The notes under the pieces were generated by a model. The model did no database searches, was not told where the DNA came from, and saw only the letters and a list, made by a program, of their open reading frames with translations. This document shows, piece after piece, positions 904-16,383 of a DNA stretch of 18,433 nucleotides (position 1 is the stretch's first letter; each line of letters begins with the position of its first letter). The stretch is from UHGV virus genome UHGV-0086921; one strand, 5' to 3'. This DNA is from a virus. Position numbers and translations under genes: made by a program.

Positions 904-1656
904 TCATTTTCTCGGTGCAGGAATCTGTACTTCAGGCCAGCATTTGCAGTTCGGCAAACATCCGGCGTGTCCGGTCATACCGTCCAGCGTCGGCGGGTTA
1001 TCCCAGCGCACAAATTTATCTTTCATCTTGCGGTGAGAATCGCGCGTTCCGGCCCCCTCGATACGCCACCAGTAGCCCTCTGAGCCAACCGAAAGGGCTC
1101 TGGCCTGCGTCAGCGCGCCGGTAGCTCGTCCAATCTCTGTGCGGGCAATCAGTTGCGCCCTGCTGGCGGTCACGTCACCGGAGGCCATGATCATCTCGTA
1201 GAGTTCGTCCGGACGTTCACCAGTGATAACCGCCTGCATTGCGCGCTTTTGTATGTCCATCACGCGATCGGCTGCTTCCAGCGGCAGGGACTTCATCAGC
1301 TGAATCTGGCGGTACACGATATCCTGCGCCACCTGCCCGACGGGGGTATTACCCACCACATCGCGCAGGCCAGCGCCGATTTCCTCTGATACCGATTTCC
1401 ACTGATTCCATTCCTCCTGCTCGACCTGGGCAAACATCCTTCGCCCGACCTGCTCTGCCCAGTCGCTGATTACCTCGGAATAGTCCACCAGCGTTTTCGA
1501 AATGCTGTCAGCGCTGGCCTGTGAACCATCGTAGGTACCATCGACGATCTGCCCTATCTGGTTTGCTATCGCCAACAGGCTTTTTCGATACTGGATCTCC
1601 GAACGACGGCGGAGGGATGGTTTCAGGTTCATCCTCCTGCCACTGGGCCTTCGCAT
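904..1656 (-). CDS. Head morphogenesis protein (SPP1 gp7 / Mu F-like minor head protein)
   Basis: 250 aa ORF immediately downstream of the portal gene on the late strand; size and sequence character fit the MuF/gp7 family. Start is uncertain: the 1656 start has a GAGGA RBS but overlaps the portal 3' end by about 150 nt; alternatives are 1632 or 1437. Confidence 0.65.
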   Translation of the reverse strand: MRRPSGRRMNLKPSLRRRSEIQYRKSLLAIANQIGQIVDGTYDGSQASADSISKTLVDYSEVISDWAEQVGRRMFAQVEQEEWNQWKSVSEEIGAGLRDVVGNTPVGQVAQDIVYRQIQLMKSLPLEAADRVMDIQKRAMQAVITGERPDELYEMIMASGDVTASRAQLIARTEIGRATGALTQARALSVGSEGYWWRIEGAGTRDSHRKMKDKFVRWDNPPTLDGMTGHAGCLPNCKCWPEVQIPAPRK

Positions 1657-2977
1657 CTTCTATGTCCTCATCAGTGATAGAACCACCGATCCCAATCACA
1701 TCAGAAATGTTCCTGAGGTCGTTAAGCGCTGCTGCAGGCGTCATTCCGAGCTCACGAACGGCGGTACCGAGTGCGGTAACCACATTGTTCGCCATCGCTG
1801 CACGGTCCACGTCTGACATCTCCCAGAGCTTGTTAAACTCGAATGTAAAATCGTCAGGCAGTGGTTCACCGAACAGAGAGCGCCAGGAGATATCGAGCAG
1901 CCAGCGGATATGTCGGCGTAAGCGTCTCTCCTGCAGCGAGTTAACCCGGCTGTAGTAGTTTTCCAGATCGCCGTCGCCGGTGTTGAAACCTGCAGGGGAC
2001 TGCCCGAACAGACGGACGAGAGGAATTCCCGTCGCGCCGGAAACCTGCTCAGCAAAGCGCAGAAGGACATCAGCGATACCCGCAAACGTATAGCTGTGGG
2101 TTTCGAACTTATCCTTACCATCCATGATGGTCATGCCTTCGATGGTCTGGAACTGACGTATCATGTCCAGGTGCTTCATCAGCGCCTTTTCAAGGTCGCC
2201 TCCGGTAGCAAGAATCTTGCGCAGGTCTTCAATGCTGTAGGTCCGCAGATGCGCTTTGTGGATCAGCTGTGTGGTGCCGACGGTCGCAGTATCAAACGCC
2301 TCGATACGCTCGAAAATACGCTCCACGACAGACATCCCCCAGCCGTTTTCCGTCTGAGCCTGCTGGAAAGGAAGCGTATCGCCCTCCATGCGGATAACGC
2401 GGCTATGGTGGATCTTCCAGGGGGGAATCCCCTGCTGGTTCGTGATTACCTTGTAATATTTCGGTTTCCCAAAATCGGGACCGTAATCGGTAACGAGATC
2501 GTAATAACTCGGGTTAACCATCCAGCGGTCAAGGCTCATCACGCCCTTAAATTGCCCCTCTTTGATGCGATCCAGTTTAAGCGGGGAGGACATATCCTGC
2601 CCTTCAAGCAGGACCACCAGCACCGCGCCACCGTACAATCGTGACCATTTGAGGTTATCGTTAAGCCCATCCCATATAGCGAGCTCATCCCAGAAGGTTT
2701 CGAGCTCGCCCTTTTGTCCGGGCTTCAGCTTTGAGCTGATGTTAATCCCCTTGCGGGTCATATCATCGGCCATCGCATCCACACCGACACCAACGAGGAA
2801 CGATGAACGATACGCAAACTCCAGCATCACCCTGTTACGGCTGATGTACCCGGGCATGTACATTCCGCCCGTCTGTATGTTTCTGGTGTCGCTGCCAAGT
2901 TTGGCCGTGAAATTGTTGTACCCGTCAGCTGTCGCAACGGGCTTTTGTGCGCCGTTCTGGCGTTTCTTACGGGACAT
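1508..2977 (-). CDS. Portal protein
   Basis: About 490 aa ORF directly after the terminase large subunit, the conserved portal position. Preferred start is the internal ATG (MSRKKRQNG...) with a GGAG RBS, just after the TerL stop; the track ORF extends to 3010. Confidence 0.7.
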   Translation of the reverse strand: MSRKKRQNGAQKPVATADGYNNFTAKLGSDTRNIQTGGMYMPGYISRNRVMLEFAYRSSFLVGVGVDAMADDMTRKGINISSKLKPGQKGELETFWDELAIWDGLNDNLKWSRLYGGAVLVVLLEGQDMSSPLKLDRIKEGQFKGVMSLDRWMVNPSYYDLVTDYGPDFGKPKYYKVITNQQGIPPWKIHHSRVIRMEGDTLPFQQAQTENGWGMSVVERIFERIEAFDTATVGTTQLIHKAHLRTYSIEDLRKILATGGDLEKALMKHLDMIRQFQTIEGMTIMDGKDKFETHSYTFAGIADVLLRFAEQVSGATGIPLVRLFGQSPAGFNTGDGDLENYYSRVNSLQERRLRRHIRWLLDISWRSLFGEPLPDDFTFEFNKLWEMSDVDRAAMANNVVTALGTAVRELGMTPAAALNDLRNISDVIGIGGSITDEDIEDAKAQWQEDEPETIPPPSFGDPVSKKPVGDSKPDRADRRWYLRWFTGQR

Positions 2978-2978
2978 G

Positions 2979-4604
2979 TCACGCTCCGGCCAGTTTGGCC
3001 CAATTATCAAGAGAGGAATCCATCGGCGCGTAGTTAATCATCACGGCGTCAGCGAGGTTCGGCGACTTGGTGCCGTCAGGCTGTTTATCAACAACGATTT
3101 TCCCCACACCGTTAATGGAATAGGTCGGTTGCGACAGCTCGATGATGAGTTTGTCTTTGCTCGCCATGGCGCTGCTGATTGAGATAATTTCGTCCGGGTT
3201 GTAGGCCATTCCCTCAACCACGGCGCGATAGGTGTTCTGGAAAAGCTTGCGTAATTGCCACCAGCTCTGGGCCTTGGCGTTAGCAAAGAAGTCCTTGTTC
3301 AGGCGGGCGGCCTGTCCGTTGTCGCCGCGCACCGCTTCATCGTCCGGATCAAATACCGCGCCGCTACCACGAAACGGTGTGGCGAGTATTGACGGTCGGC
3401 GCGCTGCGTTACGCAGTTCGTTGATGGCGCGCGCATCGCCGCGAACGCCAGCACCCAGGCCGTCCTCGTCGAAGCGAAACTCTTCGAGGTTGTCCTGTTC
3501 GCAAAAGCCGAAGACCTTCTCAACAGACTGGTAAATGTCGCTGCCAACGCCGGACCATTCACGCACGTTCTCCAGAAGGAAGCCGTGACGGGTCGAAAAG
3601 GCGTTTTTGTCCCGGCCTTCGTCGGCGACGTCCATCGCGCCCAGTCGCTTGCCCGTTGGCTGAATACCAAGTTTGATATGCGCGTCGACGGCAGCCTGTA
3701 CCCAATCGGACGGGATCAGGACGCCTTCCGCAGATGCGCTGTAGTTCAGGTCAAGTTCCTGCGCCACCACCACCGGATTGTCGATTTTCTCGCACTCCCT
3801 GCGATACCACTCTTCATCCTTGCGCGGGTCATCTCGCCAGTGGAACGTGAATACTGGTATTTTTCCGCCGTGGCGCTTCTGCGCGAACGGGTTCGCCATG
3901 CCATTAACCGAGCTCAGGTCAATACGGCAACGGGTGGTTTGCGACAGCGCCGCATCAATCAACAGAGGACGCTGGAGGAATGCAGCTTCATCCACCAGGT
4001 AGAGCGTGGTACGGTCACCACGTCCGATATTGTCGCCAGCCTCGCCTTTGATAACCGCGCCAGTATCTGGAAACTCAACGCGCATATAAGGCGCATGCTT
4101 CTTCTCGTCCCACGAGCCACGAAACTCGATGGGCAGTGTTTCCACGAACTTTCGCGCCTTCCAGAACAGCGCCTTCGGGTCACCGGTGCTGTCGACGTAT
4201 TCCTCTTTACGGGAGCCGAAACCGATAACCATTTCTTTGTTGAAGAGGCAGAGCGAACAGGCCAGCCCGATCGCCGTCCAGCTGAGCCCCATTTCGCGGC
4301 TCTTTTCGGTGATGCCGTTCTCCAGTCGTTCGCGCCGCTCCATGATCCAGTGAATCCACTCTTCCTGTTTCGGGAACAGCAGAAAAGGGATGGTGACCGG
4401 CAGGCCATAATCGATGTTACGCGGGTCAGTAGTCATACCCCAGTCGATGATGAACTGTGCCGGGTTGGTGCGGTAAAACTGCTTTAGCGCTGGCAGCATT
4501 TCAGGGTTCTGGCGAATGCGCTGTAAGCGCTCCATCCGCCATTCAAAAACCATCTGGTAATCAGGGTTTCTGAAATCGAATTCAAACGGGAGAGGCATGA
4601 TCAC
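2979..4604 (-). CDS. Terminase large subunit
   Basis: 541 aa ORF between the small terminase and portal genes. It starts with GTG and overlaps the TerS stop by 4 nt (GTGA), indicating translational coupling. Size and position are typical of TerL (ATPase plus nuclease). Confidence 0.8.
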
Positions 4605-10956: not shown

Positions 10957-11483
10957 GCCGCCCTCCTGACGCCCTGCCCGATCGCCATCAATGCCGCTTT
11001 GGATACGGTAGTAAACATCCGTCGAGGACTGATGAACGGTCGCCAAATCAGCAGCATGGAGCCTTTGCTGTTTCCCTTCTTCTCCAGCCCTGTCGATGGT
11101 TCGATAAAATTAATCCGTCCATCAGTGATAATGCGAACTTCGTCGACACTCTCCAGAGCCTTGCTGAACCATCCGACAGACATATCCTCTGGCACAAGCA
11201 TCACTACCGTCTGTCGCTGTTGTATGCACTGCTCAGCTGCTTTTTCCACCCACGGCCTGATATTGCTGTACGGTGGGTTATTCCAGATTGCACCGTGACT
11301 TACCCACTCAGAATTGAGCGCGTCGTCGGCCTCAGTTAGCCAGTGAGCGCACAGAGCATTTTTGTCGCTCGCTGCCGAATCCAGCCAGAATCCAAACTCA
11401 ATATCCAGTGCATCAAAAAGCCAGAGCGGCGTTTGCCAGCAGTCTCTAACTTCTTTTGGTGTTTCTGATTTATGCTTAATCAT
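10953..11483 (-). CDS. Phage DNA N6-adenine methyltransferase (Dam-type orphan MTase)
   Basis: 176 aa with the NPPY catalytic motif ([11 protein letters not shown]) and the N-terminal [12 protein letters not shown] pattern typical of the phage Dam family. Confidence 0.8.
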
Positions 11484-12007
11484 TCACCCCTCGCATATTG
11501 TCCGTGATATTTGTTGATAGCCTCACTGGCAACCAAACCAGCAAGCTCAAGATCTTCATAGAACCCAAAATGCAACCGGCCAAAATCTGTGCGCACTTGA
11601 ACGGCCCATTTATTTTTTTGCTTGTTCCATAAAACATTTTTTATTCCAGAACGGCTATTGCACTTAGTTTTCTGATTTCGGCTGTTTGCTATCCGGCTTG
11701 CCTCCCTAAGATTTTTTGGGGAATTGTCCAGCCTGTTTCCGTTAATATGGTCAATATTTTTCAATGGCATTCTTTTGTTGTGCAGCGCAAAAACAACTAC
11801 GTGAACAAACATCTGAATGCCTGCAAAACACACCTGTCTATACCCAGATCCATTTATCGATGTTTTAATTTCATCTCCGGCCCGGTGGCTGTGGTTGGGG
11901 TGTTTTAGCGAGTCCTTTTTGTATCTGACTGTATCTCCGTCTAAATACAGATAATCCTCAATAAGCCGATACCTATCTGACGCTGGCGTATTTGATTTGA
12001 TAGTCAT
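11480..12007 (-). CDS. HNH endonuclease with AP2-like DNA-binding domain (homing-endonuclease type)
   Basis: 176 aa from the internal ATG (MTIKSNTPASDRYRL...); HNH motif IDHINGNRLDNSPKNLREASRIANSRN followed by an AP2-like segment (NKWAVQVRTDFGRLHFGFYEDLELAGLVASEAINKYHG). ATGA overlap with the ninB stop. Confidence 0.75.
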   Translation of the reverse strand: MTIKSNTPASDRYRLIEDYLYLDGDTVRYKKDSLKHPNHSHRAGDEIKTSINGSGYRQVCFAGIQMFVHVVVFALHNKRMPLKNIDHINGNRLDNSPKNLREASRIANSRNQKTKCNSRSGIKNVLWNKQKNKWAVQVRTDFGRLHFGFYEDLELAGLVASEAINKYHGQYARGE

Positions 12008-12444
12008 GCAGCCCGATCTCCCCATCGCGCTTTCCATTCGAGAGCCAGTCGCGCTTCGTCTGACCACTTAACGCCACGCTCTGTACCGAATGCCTGTATA
12101 AGCTCTAATAGCTCCGCAAATTCGCTTACACGCATCCTGCTGGTTGACTGGCCTATTACCACAAAGCCATTCCCGGCAAGGTTAGGAACAACATCCTGCT
12201 GCTTTAATGCTGCGGTAAACACACACTTCCAGCTTTCTGCATCCAGCCAGCGCCCATGCCATTCAACCTGACGAGAGACGTCACCAAGGCAAGCCCAAAG
12301 CTTTCGATTCTGGTCTAAGCTGCGGTTGCGTTCCTGAATGGTTACTACGATTGGTTTGGTTGGGTCTGGAAGAATTTGCTGTACCGCGTGAATAGCGTTT
12401 TGCTGATGTGCTGGAGATCGAATTTCAAAGGTTAGTTTTTTCAT
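12004..12444 (-). CDS. ninB: NinB (Orf recombination mediator)
   Basis: 146 aa from MKKLTFEIRSPAHQQNAIHAVQQILPDPTKPIVVTIQERNRSLDQNRKLWACLGDVSRQVEWHGRWLDAESWK..., essentially lambda NinB as I recall it. Confidence 0.9.
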   Translation of the reverse strand: MKKLTFEIRSPAHQQNAIHAVQQILPDPTKPIVVTIQERNRSLDQNRKLWACLGDVSRQVEWHGRWLDAESWKCVFTAALKQQDVVPNLAGNGFVVIGQSTSRMRVSEFAELLELIQAFGTERGVKWSDEARLALEWKARWGDRAA

Positions 12445-12481
12445 GACTTCCCTCTCCCCCAAATAAAAAGGCCTGCGATTA

Positions 12482-12511
12482 CCAGCAGGCCTGTTATTAG
12501 CTCAGTGATGT
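12482..12511 (-). terminator. tR2-like intrinsic terminator between the replication and nin modules
   Basis: Minus strand: 7-8 bp perfect stem (GGCCTGC / GCAGGCC) with an 8 nt loop, followed directly by TTTTTATTTGG. Same position as tR2 in lambda. Confidence 0.6.
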
Positions 12512-12520
12512 AGATGGTCA

Positions 12521-13957
12521 TCAGAATCCCCCTTTCTTCTTGGACTGCGGTTCCTTGCGTTCACGGCGGCGAATTTCAGCAGACTGTTGGTCTGTGTCAT
12601 AAATAGCGCCATTTGCCTGAATGCAATACACCGTACCGGTATTGCCATGACGATTGAGACGAAGGATTAGTTCGGTTTCACCAGGTGGAACACTGTCATC
12701 AAAAGCGCCTTCACGATGGATCCCAACCCAATAATCGCAATCCTGTTCAATCTGCCCTGTATCTCGTGAGTCACTTGGTAATGGGCGTTTATTGGTTCGG
12801 CTTTCCAGTGCGCGGTTAAGCTGCGTCAGAAGCACAACAACGCAATCAAGCTCTTTGGCAAGGTTCTTCAGTCCTTTGGTGATCATGCCGTAAGCAAGGT
12901 CGTTGCGATCGGCCTTCTCAGCGGTCATTAGTGTCAGGTAATCGACCAGAATCATGCCAACACATCCTTTTTCTCGCTTGATTCGACGGCTTTCGCTGAC
13001 GATTTGAGCCAGAGATAATCCCGGCGTGTCGTCGATGTAAAGCATGTCGATTTCACTCAAGCGATTAGCTGTTTCGATCGCCCTGTTGAAGGCACCATCG
13101 TAATCACCCTGATAGCCGTCATCAGCGTCATTTGTCGCCGGAAGGTAAAAAATATTCGGGTTAACACCAGACTTCTGCCCTACCAGTTTTTCCAGTATCT
13201 GATCACCTGGCATTTCAAGGCTGAACATCAAAGCGGGCTTTTTCTCATGCACTGCGCAATTGATTGCCATCTGGCTGTATAGCGTCGTTTTCCCCATCTT
13301 AGGGCGAGCGCCAATGACAAACAGAGAGCCTTTCACCAGACCTTTCGGTGACAGCATCCTGTCCAGCGATGGGATCCCTGTGCTCATTCCCCGTTGTTCG
13401 CCTGATGGGTCAAATCGCTTCTCAAGGTCGCTAACCCAGTCTTCCATGACCTCACCAAATGAACGAAGGCCGCGACGCGATCCGGTTTTTGCATGGTCTG
13501 TCAGTTGCGTGAAAATCGCCTGAATAGCTTCGTACTTCTGCGTTGCAGTCATTCCGTTGCGGGAATAGAGCAATTCCGTCGCTTCAGTCATGCGGTTGAT
13601 GGCGTAGCGTTCCATTGCGGTTTCACGAACCTGCATTGCATAGGCAACGATGTTTGCTGCGCTTGGCGTGTTCTTTGCGATCTCAGCGATATAAGCAAAA
13701 CCGCCAACAGACGCCGTTAACGATTTACGCTCCAGTTCATCGAAAAGCGTCAGGCCATCTACTGGCTTTTGCTCCCGGTGCATTCTGGTTATTTCTTCGA
13801 AAAGGATTTTGTGTGGTCGGCCGTAAAATGAATCAGGCTTCAGCATCGCCAGAACTTTCCGGACGCGCTCACTGCTGTCATCATCCAGAAGCAATCCACC
13901 AATCACCGCCTGCTCTGCCTCGATGCTATGGGGCGGCGCATAAAAATTATCGGTCAT
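12521..13957 (-). CDS. Replicative DNA helicase, DnaB family (P22 gp12-type)
   Basis: About 478 aa with Walker A GARPKMGKT, Walker B MILVDYL, and the DnaB-like N-terminal domain (IEAEQAVIGGLLLD). Preferred start MTDNFYAPP; overlaps the upstream gene stop. Confidence 0.9.
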   Translation of the reverse strand: MTDNFYAPPHSIEAEQAVIGGLLLDDDSSERVRKVLAMLKPDSFYGRPHKILFEEITRMHREQKPVDGLTLFDELERKSLTASVGGFAYIAEIAKNTPSAANIVAYAMQVRETAMERYAINRMTEATELLYSRNGMTATQKYEAIQAIFTQLTDHAKTGSRRGLRSFGEVMEDWVSDLEKRFDPSGEQRGMSTGIPSLDRMLSPKGLVKGSLFVIGARPKMGKTTLYSQMAINCAVHEKKPALMFSLEMPGDQILEKLVGQKSGVNPNIFYLPATNDADDGYQGDYDGAFNRAIETANRLSEIDMLYIDDTPGLSLAQIVSESRRIKREKGCVGMILVDYLTLMTAEKADRNDLAYGMITKGLKNLAKELDCVVVLLTQLNRALESRTNKRPLPSDSRDTGQIEQDCDYWVGIHREGAFDDSVPPGETELILRLNRHGNTGTVYCIQANGAIYDTDQQSAEIRRRERKEPQSKKKGGF

Positions 13958-14846
13958 CGTGTTCACCCTCACGAACTTTCAGGTAGGTATTATCGTTAAG
14001 CAGGAAATCAAATCCCTTTTTGTGCCAGACGGTTCCGCGCTGATGGTTTGGGCGCTCTTCGAACATCCATCGGCAATTTTCGCCTACGTAGCTCAAATAA
14101 TTTCTCCAGTCCTGCATCGTGAAACCATGCCCGTCAAGCTGTCGGGTTATCACTCCGGCTTTGCGCCAGAACGTTCGGATCTGGTTTTTACGCTTGTCAT
14201 TCAGTGCGCGGATTCTTGGCGCTTCAGGAAGGATTTCGTGGTAAGCATCGACAACATCCTGACAGCTGACGGAAGGTTTTTTCTTGTCAGACTTTTTGTC
14301 TGCTGTGGCACTCTCTAATACGTCAGTATTAGAGATAATATTATTATATTCTTTATCTGTGGTAATTTGCTGGTAATCTGCTGGTACAGTATTGCTTGCA
14401 GGCATTGGTATTGCTGGCTTTGAGGTGGTAATTTGCTGGTAATCTGCTGGTACAAAATTTGACTGATAATCGTCATATTTCTCTACCGAGAAAACTGAGA
14501 ATTTACCGTGTGAAACCCAGTCAATCATGCCGAGTTTTTTGAACTTTCTAAGCAGGTACTGAACGCGATCTGGTTTGAGTCCTGTTTCAAACGCCAGAGT
14601 ATTTCTACCGCCAAGTAGCTTCCCTCTGCCTACCAGAATTTCTCCTGCGTCAGTCATTACATACTCAGGCGTATGCTTTGCTTTGAGGATTAAGTGAACC
14701 CACAGATGCGCAGTTTCTGCGTCCTTGTAAAACGGCACATCCATAATTTTACGGTGCAGCAAGGCATACCCCTTACCGCTGCTTTGATGCGGTTGTTGTA
14801 GCCTTCTGGCCTCTCTGGCTTCGGCTAGATTAGATATGTTACTCAT
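13947..14846 (-). CDS. Replication initiation protein (O-like / P22 gp18-like), with origin iterons inside the gene
   Basis: 299 aa ORF directly upstream of the helicase gene. It contains tandem peptide repeats ([10 protein letters not shown] x2) encoded by DNA direct repeats, the hallmark of lambdoid initiators whose ori lies within the gene. Confidence 0.75.
14355..14455. repeat. Origin-of-replication iteron array inside the initiator gene
   Basis: Two roughly 30 bp direct repeats GTGGTAATTTGCTGGTAATCTGCTGGTACA (about 14358-14389 and 14423-14454) built from CTGGTAAT-type sub-repeats, flanked by an AT-rich stretch around 14320-14360. Confidence 0.55.
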
Positions 14847-14985
14847 GACCTTTCTCCTTCTGCATCAGCTTCACTTTTTCCAACTCAGCCCGGAATCGAC
14901 CAGGCTGCTTGAAGCTGGACAGGAAGCGATCACGTAGTATGTGTTTGTGAATTTTGTCCTGGTAAGGACTGAGTTGTTTTGTCAT
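14839..14985 (-). CDS. Small hypothetical protein (48 aa) between cII and the initiator gene
   Basis: Hand translation: [48 protein letters not shown], with an AGGAG RBS 5 nt upstream. Its stop overlaps the initiator start. No recognised family. Confidence 0.35.
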
Positions 14986-14989
14986 AATG

Positions 14990-15062
14990 ACTCCTGTTGA
15001 TAGATCCAGTCTTTCTACATCAGGCCTCGAAGAATTCGCCGTTCTTCGGGGCTTTTTCTTTT
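14990..15062 (+). ncRNA. oop-like antisense RNA (terminator well supported; promoter tentative)
   Basis: Plus-strand intrinsic terminator at about 15024-15062: 11 bp stem GCCTCGAAGAA / TTCTTCGGGGC followed by TTTTTCTTTT, antisense to and overlapping the cII 3' end, exactly as lambda oop does. Candidate -10 CATAAT at about 14983-14988. Confidence 0.45.
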
Positions 15063-15298
15063 GTCAGCATTCTGGCTACTTTCTTAGCCAGTTCCGCCAA
15101 CTCCTCGTCTTCAACACCCCATTCAAGAACAGCCAGAAGCATTCCCATTTTTGGGATGAAGCTGTCTTTCCATCGCGAAATTTGCGATTCATTAATCCCT
15201 AACGCGTCGGCAACCTTTCGCTGACCACGTACAGCAATTCGATTCAGGATGTTGCTTGTAATTGCATTCGCTTTCTTGCGAGTACTTGTAAGTTGCAT
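15020..15298 (-). CDS. cII: Transcriptional activator CII
   Basis: 92 aa from [62 protein letters not shown]..., with the lambda CII signature ([25 protein letters not shown]). The translation-initiation region AAGGAAATACTTACAT-ATG is lambda-like. Confidence 0.85.
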
Positions 15299-15356
15299 AT
15301 GTAAGTATTTCCTTAACAAATAAGAAGTTATGCGCATCAAATTATGCGCGTTGTAT

Positions 15357-15400
15357 TCCCGCATTTCGGCGGGAATGAGGACCATGACTGTTAAAGAGCG
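15357..15400 (-). promoter_or_regulatory. nutR (boxA + boxB) N-utilisation site
   Basis: On the minus transcript, boxA CGCTCTTTAACAG is followed by the boxB hairpin UCCCGC-CGAAAU-GCGGGA, immediately downstream of cro. An identical boxB is present in nutL. Confidence 0.6.
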
Positions 15401-15408
15401 GGTACTGC

Positions 15409-15627
15409 TTAGGCGGCTTTGTTACTGGATGGAGGGAAAACATCATCCAAAGAACATTGGCACCCTAACTTCCTGAGGCCTTCTACGATCATTCGGCAAT
15501 CGTTAAGGCCAGGAGTACGGATATTCAGCTCATAGTTGGCGATGCGGGATTGCCCCCAACCAATTGCTGAAGCTAGTACAGCTTGCGAAACTCCGATTTT
15601 TTTTCGCTGCTGGGCAATTTTGTTCAT
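15409..15627 (-). CDS. cro: Cro-like HTH repressor (434/P22-type Cro)
   Basis: 72 aa from MNKIAQQRKKIGVSQAVLASAIGWGQSRIANYELN... (HTH_XRE-like), with a GGGAGA RBS. It is the first gene transcribed from the pR-like promoter, divergent from cI. Confidence 0.8.
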   Translation of the reverse strand: MNKIAQQRKKIGVSQAVLASAIGWGQSRIANYELNIRTPGLNDCRMIVEGLRKLGCQCSLDDVFPPSSNKAA

Positions 15628-15639
15628 TGCGGTCTCCCT

Positions 15640-15735
15640 AGCATTAATCACACACCCATTACACACAATTTGTGATTAACAGTCAACCTCAATTCGTGTA
15701 CAGAGTTCAATCACGTTGCGTGTTACATTTAAGGG
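15640..15735. promoter_or_regulatory. Right operator/promoter region (OR with pR and pRM)
   Basis: Divergent cI/cro intergenic region. Minus-strand pR reads TTGACT (about 15681-15686), 17 bp spacer, TGTAAT (about 15658-15663). Repeated AATCACA/TGTGATT operator half-sites (TTAATCACA at about 15644; TGTGATTAA at about 15671; AATCACG at about 15709). Possible pRM -10 TACATT ending at the cI ATG, implying a leaderless cI mRNA. Confidence 0.6.
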
Positions 15736-16383
15736 ATGAAAACGATGCATGAAATTATCGGGGAAAGGATCAAGTCCCTTAGAGAAGCTAAAGGACTTAG
15801 CCAGGCTCAATTGGCCAAGCTTTGCGGCTGGGCTGCGCCTTCACGCCTGGGGAACTACGAGTTAGGAACAAGAAAGGTTAGCGCGGATGACGCGCTGGTT
15901 CTTGGGGCGGCACTCGGCGTATCTCCGGCAAAAATAATGTTTGGCGAGGATTCAGACGCCGTATTTCGCCAATATGAATACCCGTTATTTTCTTCAGTGC
16001 AGGCCGGGCCATTTTCGGAGGTGGGAAGCTACACAGCCAGCGATGCAAAGGCATGGGTCCCAACGACCACAAAAGCCAGCGAAAAAGCTTTCTGGCTTGA
16101 GGTGAAGGGGCATTCAATGACGGCGCCTCAGGGGGTTCGTCCAAGTTTTCCGGAAGGCATGCTGATACTCGTTGATCCGGCTGAGCCGGTAGAGTCTGGG
16201 GATTTCTGCGTGGCTTCTGCAAATGGTGATTCAGAGGCAACGTTCAAGAAGTATGAGAAGGATGCAGGGGTTAGTTACCTGGTACCTTTAAACCCGGCAT
16301 ATAGAACACTGGATTGCGACCATAGCTGCCGCATCATAGGCAAGGTAGTTAAGGCGCAGTGGCCTGAAGAGACGTTTGGCTGA
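15736..16383 (+). CDS. cI: CI prophage repressor (LexA-like S24 autopeptidase family)
   Basis: 215 aa with an N-terminal HTH ([12 protein letters not shown]...) and C-terminal S24 features (VKGHSMTAP... Ser nucleophile, and a later Lys in IGKVVK). An in-frame alternative start at 15745 has an AAGGG RBS. Confidence 0.9.

Follow-up and report, generated by a model that had tools for sequence, protein, structure and literature searches.

A predicted replication origin of the HK022/HK620/VT2-Sakai type inside the initiator gene of a lambdoid prophage

Two clusters of short direct repeats in the initiator gene of a lambdoid prophage were analyzed, and they very probably represent the replication origin of this prophage. 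The origin belongs to a module of the HK022/HK620/VT2-Sakai type and lies in the part of the gene that encodes the linker of the initiator protein. The repeats were found in a stretch of viral DNA of 18,433 nt (hereafter, the window). In total, they comprise six asymmetric 11-bp units, arranged as two clusters of three. Phased direct repeats, an adjoining AT tract and an initiator encoded in cis, namely the structural features of an iteron-type origin, are all present at this locus. That the repeats are an origin feature is already known from public annotation.

Genomic Context and Previous Annotation

The order of genes around the repeats is the usual lambdoid early-right arrangement (Table 1). 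The initiator gene O is followed by the gene of a DnaB-type helicase, and no gene lies between them. The helicase gene overlaps the O stop codon by 11 nt, and HK620 and VT2-Sakai have the two genes in this order too; a 478-aa helicase gene is also called in the relatives. The helicase was attributed to the Pfam families DnaB (1.4e-30) and DnaB_C (9e-60) and showed 32% identity with gp12 of the phage P22 (E = 9e-59), in agreement with the DnaB-type partner named in the sequence-only reading of this DNA. NinB and more genes of the nin region follow the helicase gene. Promoter-like sites were not found in the region 13900–15100, and an Rfam search of the whole window did not reveal any family above the threshold. 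The high-identity coverage of the window by the best phage record was no more than ~37%; thus, the window is a new mosaic of familiar modules.

Table 1. Coordinates of the genes, protein domains and DNA elements of the origin region in the window.
Feature	Position	Strand	Basis or remark
DnaB-type helicase gene P, 478 aa from ATG at 13957	12521–13957	-	Pfam DnaB, DnaB_C
Initiator gene O, 299 aa	13947–14846	-	ORF/translation; PHROG 345
C-terminal domain of O, ~aa 172–299, presumed helicase recruiter	13947–14333	-	PHROG 24933; similarity to the P22 gp18 C-terminus
Perfect palindrome, 10-nt arms, 4-nt centre	14312–14335	.	Arms 14312–14321 and 14326–14335
AT-rich tract, 23 nt, presumed DNA-unwinding element	14336–14358	-	GC content, position
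Iteron cluster 2, same sequence as cluster 1, abuts the AT tract	14359–14388	-	VT2-Sakai 'ori iteron 2'
Spacer between the iteron clusters, 36 bp	14389–14424	-	Sets the cluster distance of 66 bp (6 x 11)
Iteron cluster 1, promoter-proximal	14425–14454	-	Exact 30-nt repeat, 11-bp period; VT2-Sakai 'ori iteron 1'
N-terminal domain of O, aa 1–128, ends KYDDYQ; presumed iteron-binding, G38P-type	14463–14846	-	BLASTP to SPP1 G38P
orf48/DUF2740	14839–14985	-	
cII	15020–15385	-	
cro-type gene	15409–15666	-	
cI-type repressor	15736–16383	+	

Over all 900 nt, the O gene is 98.2–99.2% identical to those of HK022, HK620, VT2-Sakai and Stx1/Stx2 phages, and the O genes of CP-1639 and mEp235 are likewise 98–99% identical over the whole gene. 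A module of this type has been annotated as an origin since about 2000. In the VT2-Sakai record (AP000422), two misc_binding features with the O protein as the bound moiety correspond to the two iteron clusters of the window, and the HK620 record (AF335538) contains a two-part rep_origin over the same 30-mers. The homologous place in the phage Sf6 is described as 'putative; repeat region reminiscent of the phage lambda origin; similar to phage HK620', and a putative rep_origin is annotated at the homologous place in the phage L. For gene 18 of the phage L, six imprecise 11-bp repeats were described as the likely origin (PMC8022706). The public origin annotations are labelled 'putative' or are based on analogy with lambda. 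The segment comprising the N-domain and the origin was found, at a coverage of at least 80%, in 229 of 5,426 complete E. coli genomes (~4%).

Structure of the Repeats

The sequence-only reading had placed two direct repeats of roughly 30 bp at positions 14320–14470, inside a coding sequence in which they duplicate a peptide. Self-comparison of the window confirmed two copies that are exact over 30 nt (GTGGTAATTTGCTGGTAATCTGCTGGTACA on the plus strand), with a start-to-start distance of 66 bp; when extended to 35 nt, the pair is 94% identical. According to our own estimate, ~1e-10 exact 30-mer pairs would be expected by chance in 18.4 kb. Both copies are located in the minus-strand ORF that was identified as the O gene. 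Analysis using Tandem Repeats Finder revealed an 11-bp period within each copy (2.5–3 copies), so that each 30-mer contains ~2.7 units of the motif wTTACCAGCAr. On the plus strand, each 30-mer reads GTGGTAAT, CTGGTAAT, CTGGTAC, and the earlier description of CTGGTAAT sub-repeats was therefore roughly right. Three phased 11-bp units, namely TGTACCAGCAG, ATTACCAGCAA and ATTACCAC, make up each cluster on the coding (minus) strand.

The core octamer TACCAGCA occurs in four copies at the repeats, with a spacing of 11, 55 and 11 bp. The whole window contains five copies, where 0.42 would be expected, and none of 200 shuffles reached this number. The first 11 nt of the spacer (AAAGCCAGCAA) resemble a degenerate fourth unit, and the spacer is the part of the array that varies most among close relatives. 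Further clusters of the 11-bp unit were not found elsewhere in the window. A lone perfect unit, ATTACCAGCAG, is located at 12478–12488, just downstream of the helicase gene.

The 10-residue peptide encoded by the 30-mer occurs twice in the O translation, 22 residues apart. With a period of 11 bp, successive units fall into three different reading frames, so that a repeated peptide arises only from the 30-bp cluster as a whole. It is the DNA that is repeated, and the duplicated peptide would be a by-product of DNA repeats translated in a tolerant linker.

AT-Rich Tract and Palindrome

An AT-rich stretch adjoins the repeats, as had also been noted from the sequence alone. The GC content of 60-nt windows over positions 14300–14379 is 27–32%, compared with ~48% around them, and it is 17% in the 40 nt that follow the last repeat (in the orientation of the gene).

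Beyond the AT tract lies a perfect palindrome, which on the coding strand reads TCTCTAATAC TGAC GTATTAGAGA. It was absent from the sequence-only reading and lies partly outside the region considered there. As a single-stranded DNA hairpin, it has a predicted energy of -9 kcal/mol (z = -6.0). Across eight sequences, seven of them distinct, 98.6% of the cells are paired, and eight of the ten pairs have changed on both sides while none has changed on one side only. These values were reached in 0 of 500 shuffles, and slid registers paired at only 29–46%. The palindrome is thus kept by Watson–Crick compensatory changes across diverged relatives. A role as a terminator was also considered: there is a weak terminator-like site on the antisense (plus) strand with only three G–C pairs. 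This role was ranked below a role at the DNA level because no pair shows a one-sided change of the G–T type. The palindrome could form a hairpin or cruciform for origin opening or helicase loading, in two initiator families without detectable sequence similarity to each other.

The flanking elements also bear on the possibility that the repeats bind the initiator for regulation, that is for autorepression, copy control of the handcuffing type or a fork barrier like oriR of SPP1, and that the strands open elsewhere. In SPP1, oriR is a second G38P-bound site that is proposed to stall forks rather than to fire (PMC6316719). The lone unit downstream of the helicase gene would also fit such a role, and the window covers no more than 18 kb of the phage. 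However, the AT tract and the palindrome flank the repeats in the order of the lambda ori, and there is no other cluster of the unit in the window. In addition, genetic swaps cited for the phage L indicate an origin within its replication region, which is the homologue of this module (PMC8022706). Taken together, these data make a regulatory site with an opening site elsewhere unlikely, and the repeats are better explained as the origin itself.

The Initiator Protein

The O protein was assigned to PHROG 345 ('replication initiation O-like') with a value of 5.9e-87. Its presumed architecture includes an N-terminal origin-binding domain, a linker whose coding sequence carries the origin, and a C-terminal domain that recruits the partner protein. 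A BLASTP comparison revealed a similarity of residues 23–143 with residues 2–125 of the protein G38P of the Bacillus phage SPP1 (29% identity, E = 2e-10). A tblastn search of the whole phage collection with the N-domain again found SPP1 (E = 6e-5), along with phiAT3 (Lactobacillus) and phages of Vibrio, Shewanella and Pseudomonas. The match of the N-domain with the Pfam family Phage_rep_org_N was below the threshold (E = 0.09). No match with the family Phage_rep_O (PF04492) was found, either for the whole O protein at E ≤ 0.01 or for residues 1–128 at E ≤ 1; the comparison scores for lambda O and P22 gp18 were 5.7e-36 and 6.9e-38, respectively. BLASTP of the O protein against lambda O did not reveal any similarity, the C-domain included. 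A remote homology of the N-domain family with the N-domains of lambda O and P22 gp18 was not supported by a profile–profile comparison using hhalign (probability of 4.7%). As judged from these comparisons, the N-domain is a homologue of SPP1 G38P and is not of the lambda O type. The designation of the initiator as 'O-like', given in the sequence-only reading, is thus appropriate for its position and function and does not hold for its sequence.

G38P is an origin-binding 'replisome organizer' that binds the repeats ('AB boxes') of oriL (PMC5737612, PMC6316719). The site oriL is embedded in gene 38 and adjoins an AT-rich unwinding element (PMC5737612), and oriL-dependent theta replication was reconstituted in vitro (PMC5737612, PMC6316719).

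The C-terminal domain of the O protein showed a weak similarity to the C-terminus of P22 gp18 (25% identity, E = 1e-4). Modeling of the initiator from its single sequence using AlphaFold2 led to a model with a mean pLDDT of 41, too low for use, and solved structures matching the initiator by sequence were not found.

Comparative Analysis of the Module

At least 20 phage records matched the O gene only over nt 491–900 of the gene, with an identity of 92–98%; these phages include HK106, mEp234, Sf6, mEpX2, HK629, ECP1, IME10, mEp506, HK633, HK75, HK542 and SW-70. The C-terminal half and the helicase are common to them at ~97%. The last iteron ends at nt 488 of the gene, which places the junction of the swap 2 nt after the last repeat. 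In mEp506, the part upstream of the junction is a diverged homologue, with 46% amino acid identity in the N-domain. The swap phages examined, namely mEp506 and Sf6, have an N-domain of 46% identity and contain a different unit, TTGTCCAACGG, with the 3+3 layout and the 66-bp spacing kept. In mEp506, three copies of TTGTCCAACGG are followed by a 33-bp gap and by three copies again, and the encoded peptide is CPTVVQRLS. These domain swaps indicate that the N-domain and the iterons form one module and that the AT tract, the palindrome, the C-domain and the helicase form another.

The layout was then compared in eight enterobacterial members of the family: the window, CobraSix, L, mEp506, Sf6, Erwinia Ehr59, Yersinia 30.14 and a Klebsiella prophage. 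All eight contained three units, a gap of three units, three more units and an AT tract with a GC content of 17–28%, and the cluster spacing of 66 bp was found in all seven relatives other than the window. The units fell into the classes TTACCAGCA, TGTCCAGCC, TGTCCAACG and TGTGCCAAC. The difference between iterons falls as the identity of the N-domains rises (Mantel r = -0.53; 34 of 5,040 exact permutations were as low, with only seven sequences). In this small sample, the class of the iteron appears to track the similarity of the N-domain, in the expected direction.

This relationship is also relevant to whether the repeats could be recognized by some other protein of the host or the phage, such as DnaA, IHF or a repressor. 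The unit sequence changes together with the N-domain encoded by the gene around it, whereas the remainder of the module does not change, and a joint change of unit and N-domain is what a binder encoded in cis predicts. Moreover, no DnaA box was found in the O gene, and the number of matches in the whole window was at the chance level (33 found, 32.6 expected). No point in favor of another binder was found, and such a binder is extremely improbable.

In the Erwinia phage Ehr59, an N-domain of this family and the same iteron layout are combined with a C-domain that is 70% identical to that of lambda O, and a lambda-P-like gene follows. This combination indicates that the two halves of the O protein are separate functional modules and that the C-domain goes with the partner protein, the latter being the classical lambda model.

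Beyond the enterobacterial members described above, arrays of 11-bp units were found at the equivalent place in distant homologues. Gene 38 of SPP1 contains five tandem units (AAAMGACA..) at nt 362–416, followed by a tract with 22% GC, and we infer that these units are the published AB boxes. Arrays are also present in phiAT3 and Vibrio 1.228.O, and that of the Pseudomonas phage Orisa03 is weaker.

Longer alleles of the O protein were found as well. Versions of 321 and 343 aa contain three and four copies of the 10-residue peptide module, respectively, and at the DNA level they show 2.5 and 3.5 perfect tandem copies of a 66-bp element. These alleles occur in the genomes of E. coli, E. albertii and Salmonella. 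The polymorphism of two, three or four clusters could tune the strength of the origin or the cross-interference between co-resident prophages in E. coli rich in Stx phages. The joint proposal that the palindrome is a structural DNA element and that the cluster polymorphism has a functional meaning is tentative, and we consider it somewhat doubtful. A scan of IMG/VR with alignment of the O protein yielded 80 loci, all of which were 97–100% identical and thus too close for an analysis of covariation. Among these near-identical relatives, 5 of 60 iteron columns were variable compared with 96 of 900 columns over the gene, and the iterons were not clearly more conserved.

The absence of extra conservation in close relatives, the variation of the module copy number (2, 3 or 4, always in frame) and the tolerance of wholly different linker peptides in relatives would all be consistent with a tandem duplication that is neutral, or with a peptide repeat under selection, within a disordered linker and with no role at the DNA level. 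However, the 11-bp sub-period, whose units fall into three reading frames, cannot result from selection on the peptide. The 3+3 layout, the 66-bp spacing and the AT tract recur with other units in relatives down to 45% identity, and the class of the unit tracks the N-domain. Furthermore, distant homologues, SPP1 among them, have 11-bp arrays at the corresponding place, and the gene-internal repeats of SPP1 are a proven origin (PMC5737612). A mere duplication in the linker is thus very improbable. The reading of the repeats as an origin inside the gene, which the sequence-only reading had also put forward, is consistent with the comparative results and with the annotation of VT2-Sakai, HK620, Sf6 and the phage L.

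Proposed Mechanism and Significance

Binding, unwinding, helicase recruitment and origin firing are the predicted steps at this locus. The N-domain of the initiator, a relative of G38P, would bind the six 11-bp units. With three units in each of two clusters spaced by 66 bp, all sites would lie roughly on one face of the helix. The resulting nucleoprotein complex may destabilize the adjoining AT-rich tract, and the palindrome beyond it probably assists opening or helicase loading. The C-domain would then bring in the phage's own DnaB-type helicase, as in the gene 18/12 system of P22. In lambda, transcription from pR through the origin region contributes to initiation, and it may contribute here as well.

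A module of this type is carried by the Stx phages of O157:H7 Sakai, which are of clinical importance. No experimental binding, footprint or replication assay for this class of origin was found in the searchable literature. No biochemical test of the class appears to exist, in contrast to the lambda-type origins of 933W and P27 (PMC7466680), and the homology with SPP1 G38P provides a well-studied experimental model. No mention of the link with G38P, the covarying palindrome or the polymorphism of two, three or four clusters was found in the records and literature examined; these are modest additions to what is known.

Comparison with Known Systems

The closest known system is the origin of HK022, HK620 and VT2-Sakai (Stx phage Sp5 type). 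It is the same element as that of the window, with a few point differences and the same DnaB-type helicase following it.

The phages L, Sf6 and mEp506 have an initiator of the same protein family, the 3+3 layout of 11-bp units and the 66-bp spacing, and their AT tract, palindrome, C-domain and helicase are near-identical to those of the window. However, their unit is TGTCCAACGG rather than TTACCAGCA, and their N-domains are only 43–56% identical overall (47–53% over the core). This suggests that they represent a different specificity class.

In SPP1, the N-domain of the initiator is homologous, and the origin is likewise located in the initiator gene straight after the part encoding the N-domain, with 11-bp units followed by an AT tract. 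The differences include another unit sequence and a single run of about five units instead of two clusters of three. The C-terminus of G38P matches the Pfam family Phg_2220_C at 2e-20, whereas the O protein of the window does not. Between its initiator and its helicase, SPP1 also employs G39P as a separate loader, while here the helicase gene directly follows the initiator gene. In addition, SPP1 has a second site, oriR.

The similarity with lambda is one of organization. In both cases, the origin occupies the central, linker-encoding part of the initiator gene, and the order is iterons, AT tract and palindrome; in lambda, the AT tract is followed at the corresponding place by a palindrome whose 12-nt arms flank a 4-nt centre. 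In both cases, the N-terminal half goes with iteron specificity, the C-terminal half goes with the partner, and the mosaic junctions lie at the origin. However, the proteins have no detectable sequence similarity, and the match with Phage_rep_O is absent here. Direct comparison of the ori regions also showed that the iterons are unlike those of lambda, as claimed earlier, and unlike those of P22; in these two phages, the repeats are present in four 20-nt copies each, with a spacing of 20, 24 and 23. The lambda iterons are four elements of 18–20 bp with internal dyad symmetry and a spacing of 20–24 bp, whereas the window contains six asymmetric units in two clusters. The partner in lambda is the P loader, which captures the host DnaB, while here it is a DnaB-type helicase encoded by the phage.

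Genes 18 and 12 of P22 are similar to the module of the window in that the initiator is followed by a DnaB-type helicase, the C-termini of the initiators are weakly similar and orf48 is located upstream in both. However, the N-domain of P22 gp18 is of the lambda O type, and its origin contains four iterons of ~20 bp in the lambda pattern.

Variation of the O gene and its iterons

Comparison of the initiator (O) gene with related phage sequences revealed a sharp mosaic junction at window positions 14356–14358 (gene nt 489–491), which was seen repeatedly. At least 20 phage records share with the window all of the sequence from 2 nt past the last iteron through the helicase gene, and upstream of the junction the same records differ in both the N-domain and the iterons.

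The number of iteron clusters also varies among natural alleles of the O gene. The regions homologous to window positions 14359–14454 contain four clusters in the locus L098 (positions 1893–2120) and three in the locus L099 (positions 1893–2054), where a 66-bp sequence is repeated perfectly in tandem, in 3.5 and 2.5 copies, respectively. The O proteins encoded by the four- and three-cluster alleles are 343 and 321 aa in length, compared with 299 aa in the window. These alleles were found in genomes of E. coli, E. albertii and Salmonella.

Other features of the early and nin regions

Features of the early and nin regions
Feature	Position	Strand	Description
Strong hairpin of 14 pairs, 6 of them G-C, with TTTCTTTTGT next to it on the 3' side	15022–15054	+	Antisense to cII 3' end
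orf48/hkaW, 48 aa	14839–14985	-	Pfam DUF2740 in relatives
HNH-endonuclease-like ORF	11480–12067	-	PHROG 99, 1.1e-43

In lambdoid phages, the oop antisense RNA has its terminator at the site of this hairpin, opposite the 3' end of cII. A search against Rfam gave no match anywhere in the window.

The orf48/hkaW gene overlaps the start of the initiator gene by 8 nt, and a 48-aa orf48 with an identical overlap is present in P22, L, a Klebsiella prophage and modules of the HK620/HK022 type. The label given to it in PHROG, "tail protein" (phrog_1913), appears to be a mis-annotation, since orf48 is an early-region gene. The HNH-endonuclease-like ORF is located in the nin region between NinB and a DNA methyltransferase and, as listed, has about 60 nt in common with the ORF of NinB.

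A single perfect iteron unit, ATTACCAGCAG, was found at positions 12478–12488 (+), on the strand opposite to that of the origin units. This unit lies in the short intergenic stretch that separates the stop of the helicase gene (12521) from the start of NinB (12462). It could be a chance occurrence, given that 0.42 copies of the 8-mer are expected per window.

Comparison with the lambda origin and initiator

The palindrome located 3' of the AT tract (14312–14335, 10-bp arms) was analyzed in an alignment of eight sequences including the window. Strictly Watson–Crick compensatory changes preserve its pairing, and all but one of the eight have either TGAC or TAAC as the 4-nt centre. The lambda ori has a palindrome counterpart at the same relative position.

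A hybrid initiator was found in the Erwinia phage vB_EhrS_59 (L089, positions 1486–3137). Its N-domain is of the G38P type with a 3+3 layout of 11-bp iterons, its C-domain is 70% identical to that of lambda O, and a lambda-P-like loader is encoded downstream. Judging from the sequence, the joint of this hybrid may fall just after its own palindrome, at GTCAGAGAATTT, because this stretch is similar to the left arm of the palindrome in the lambda ori.
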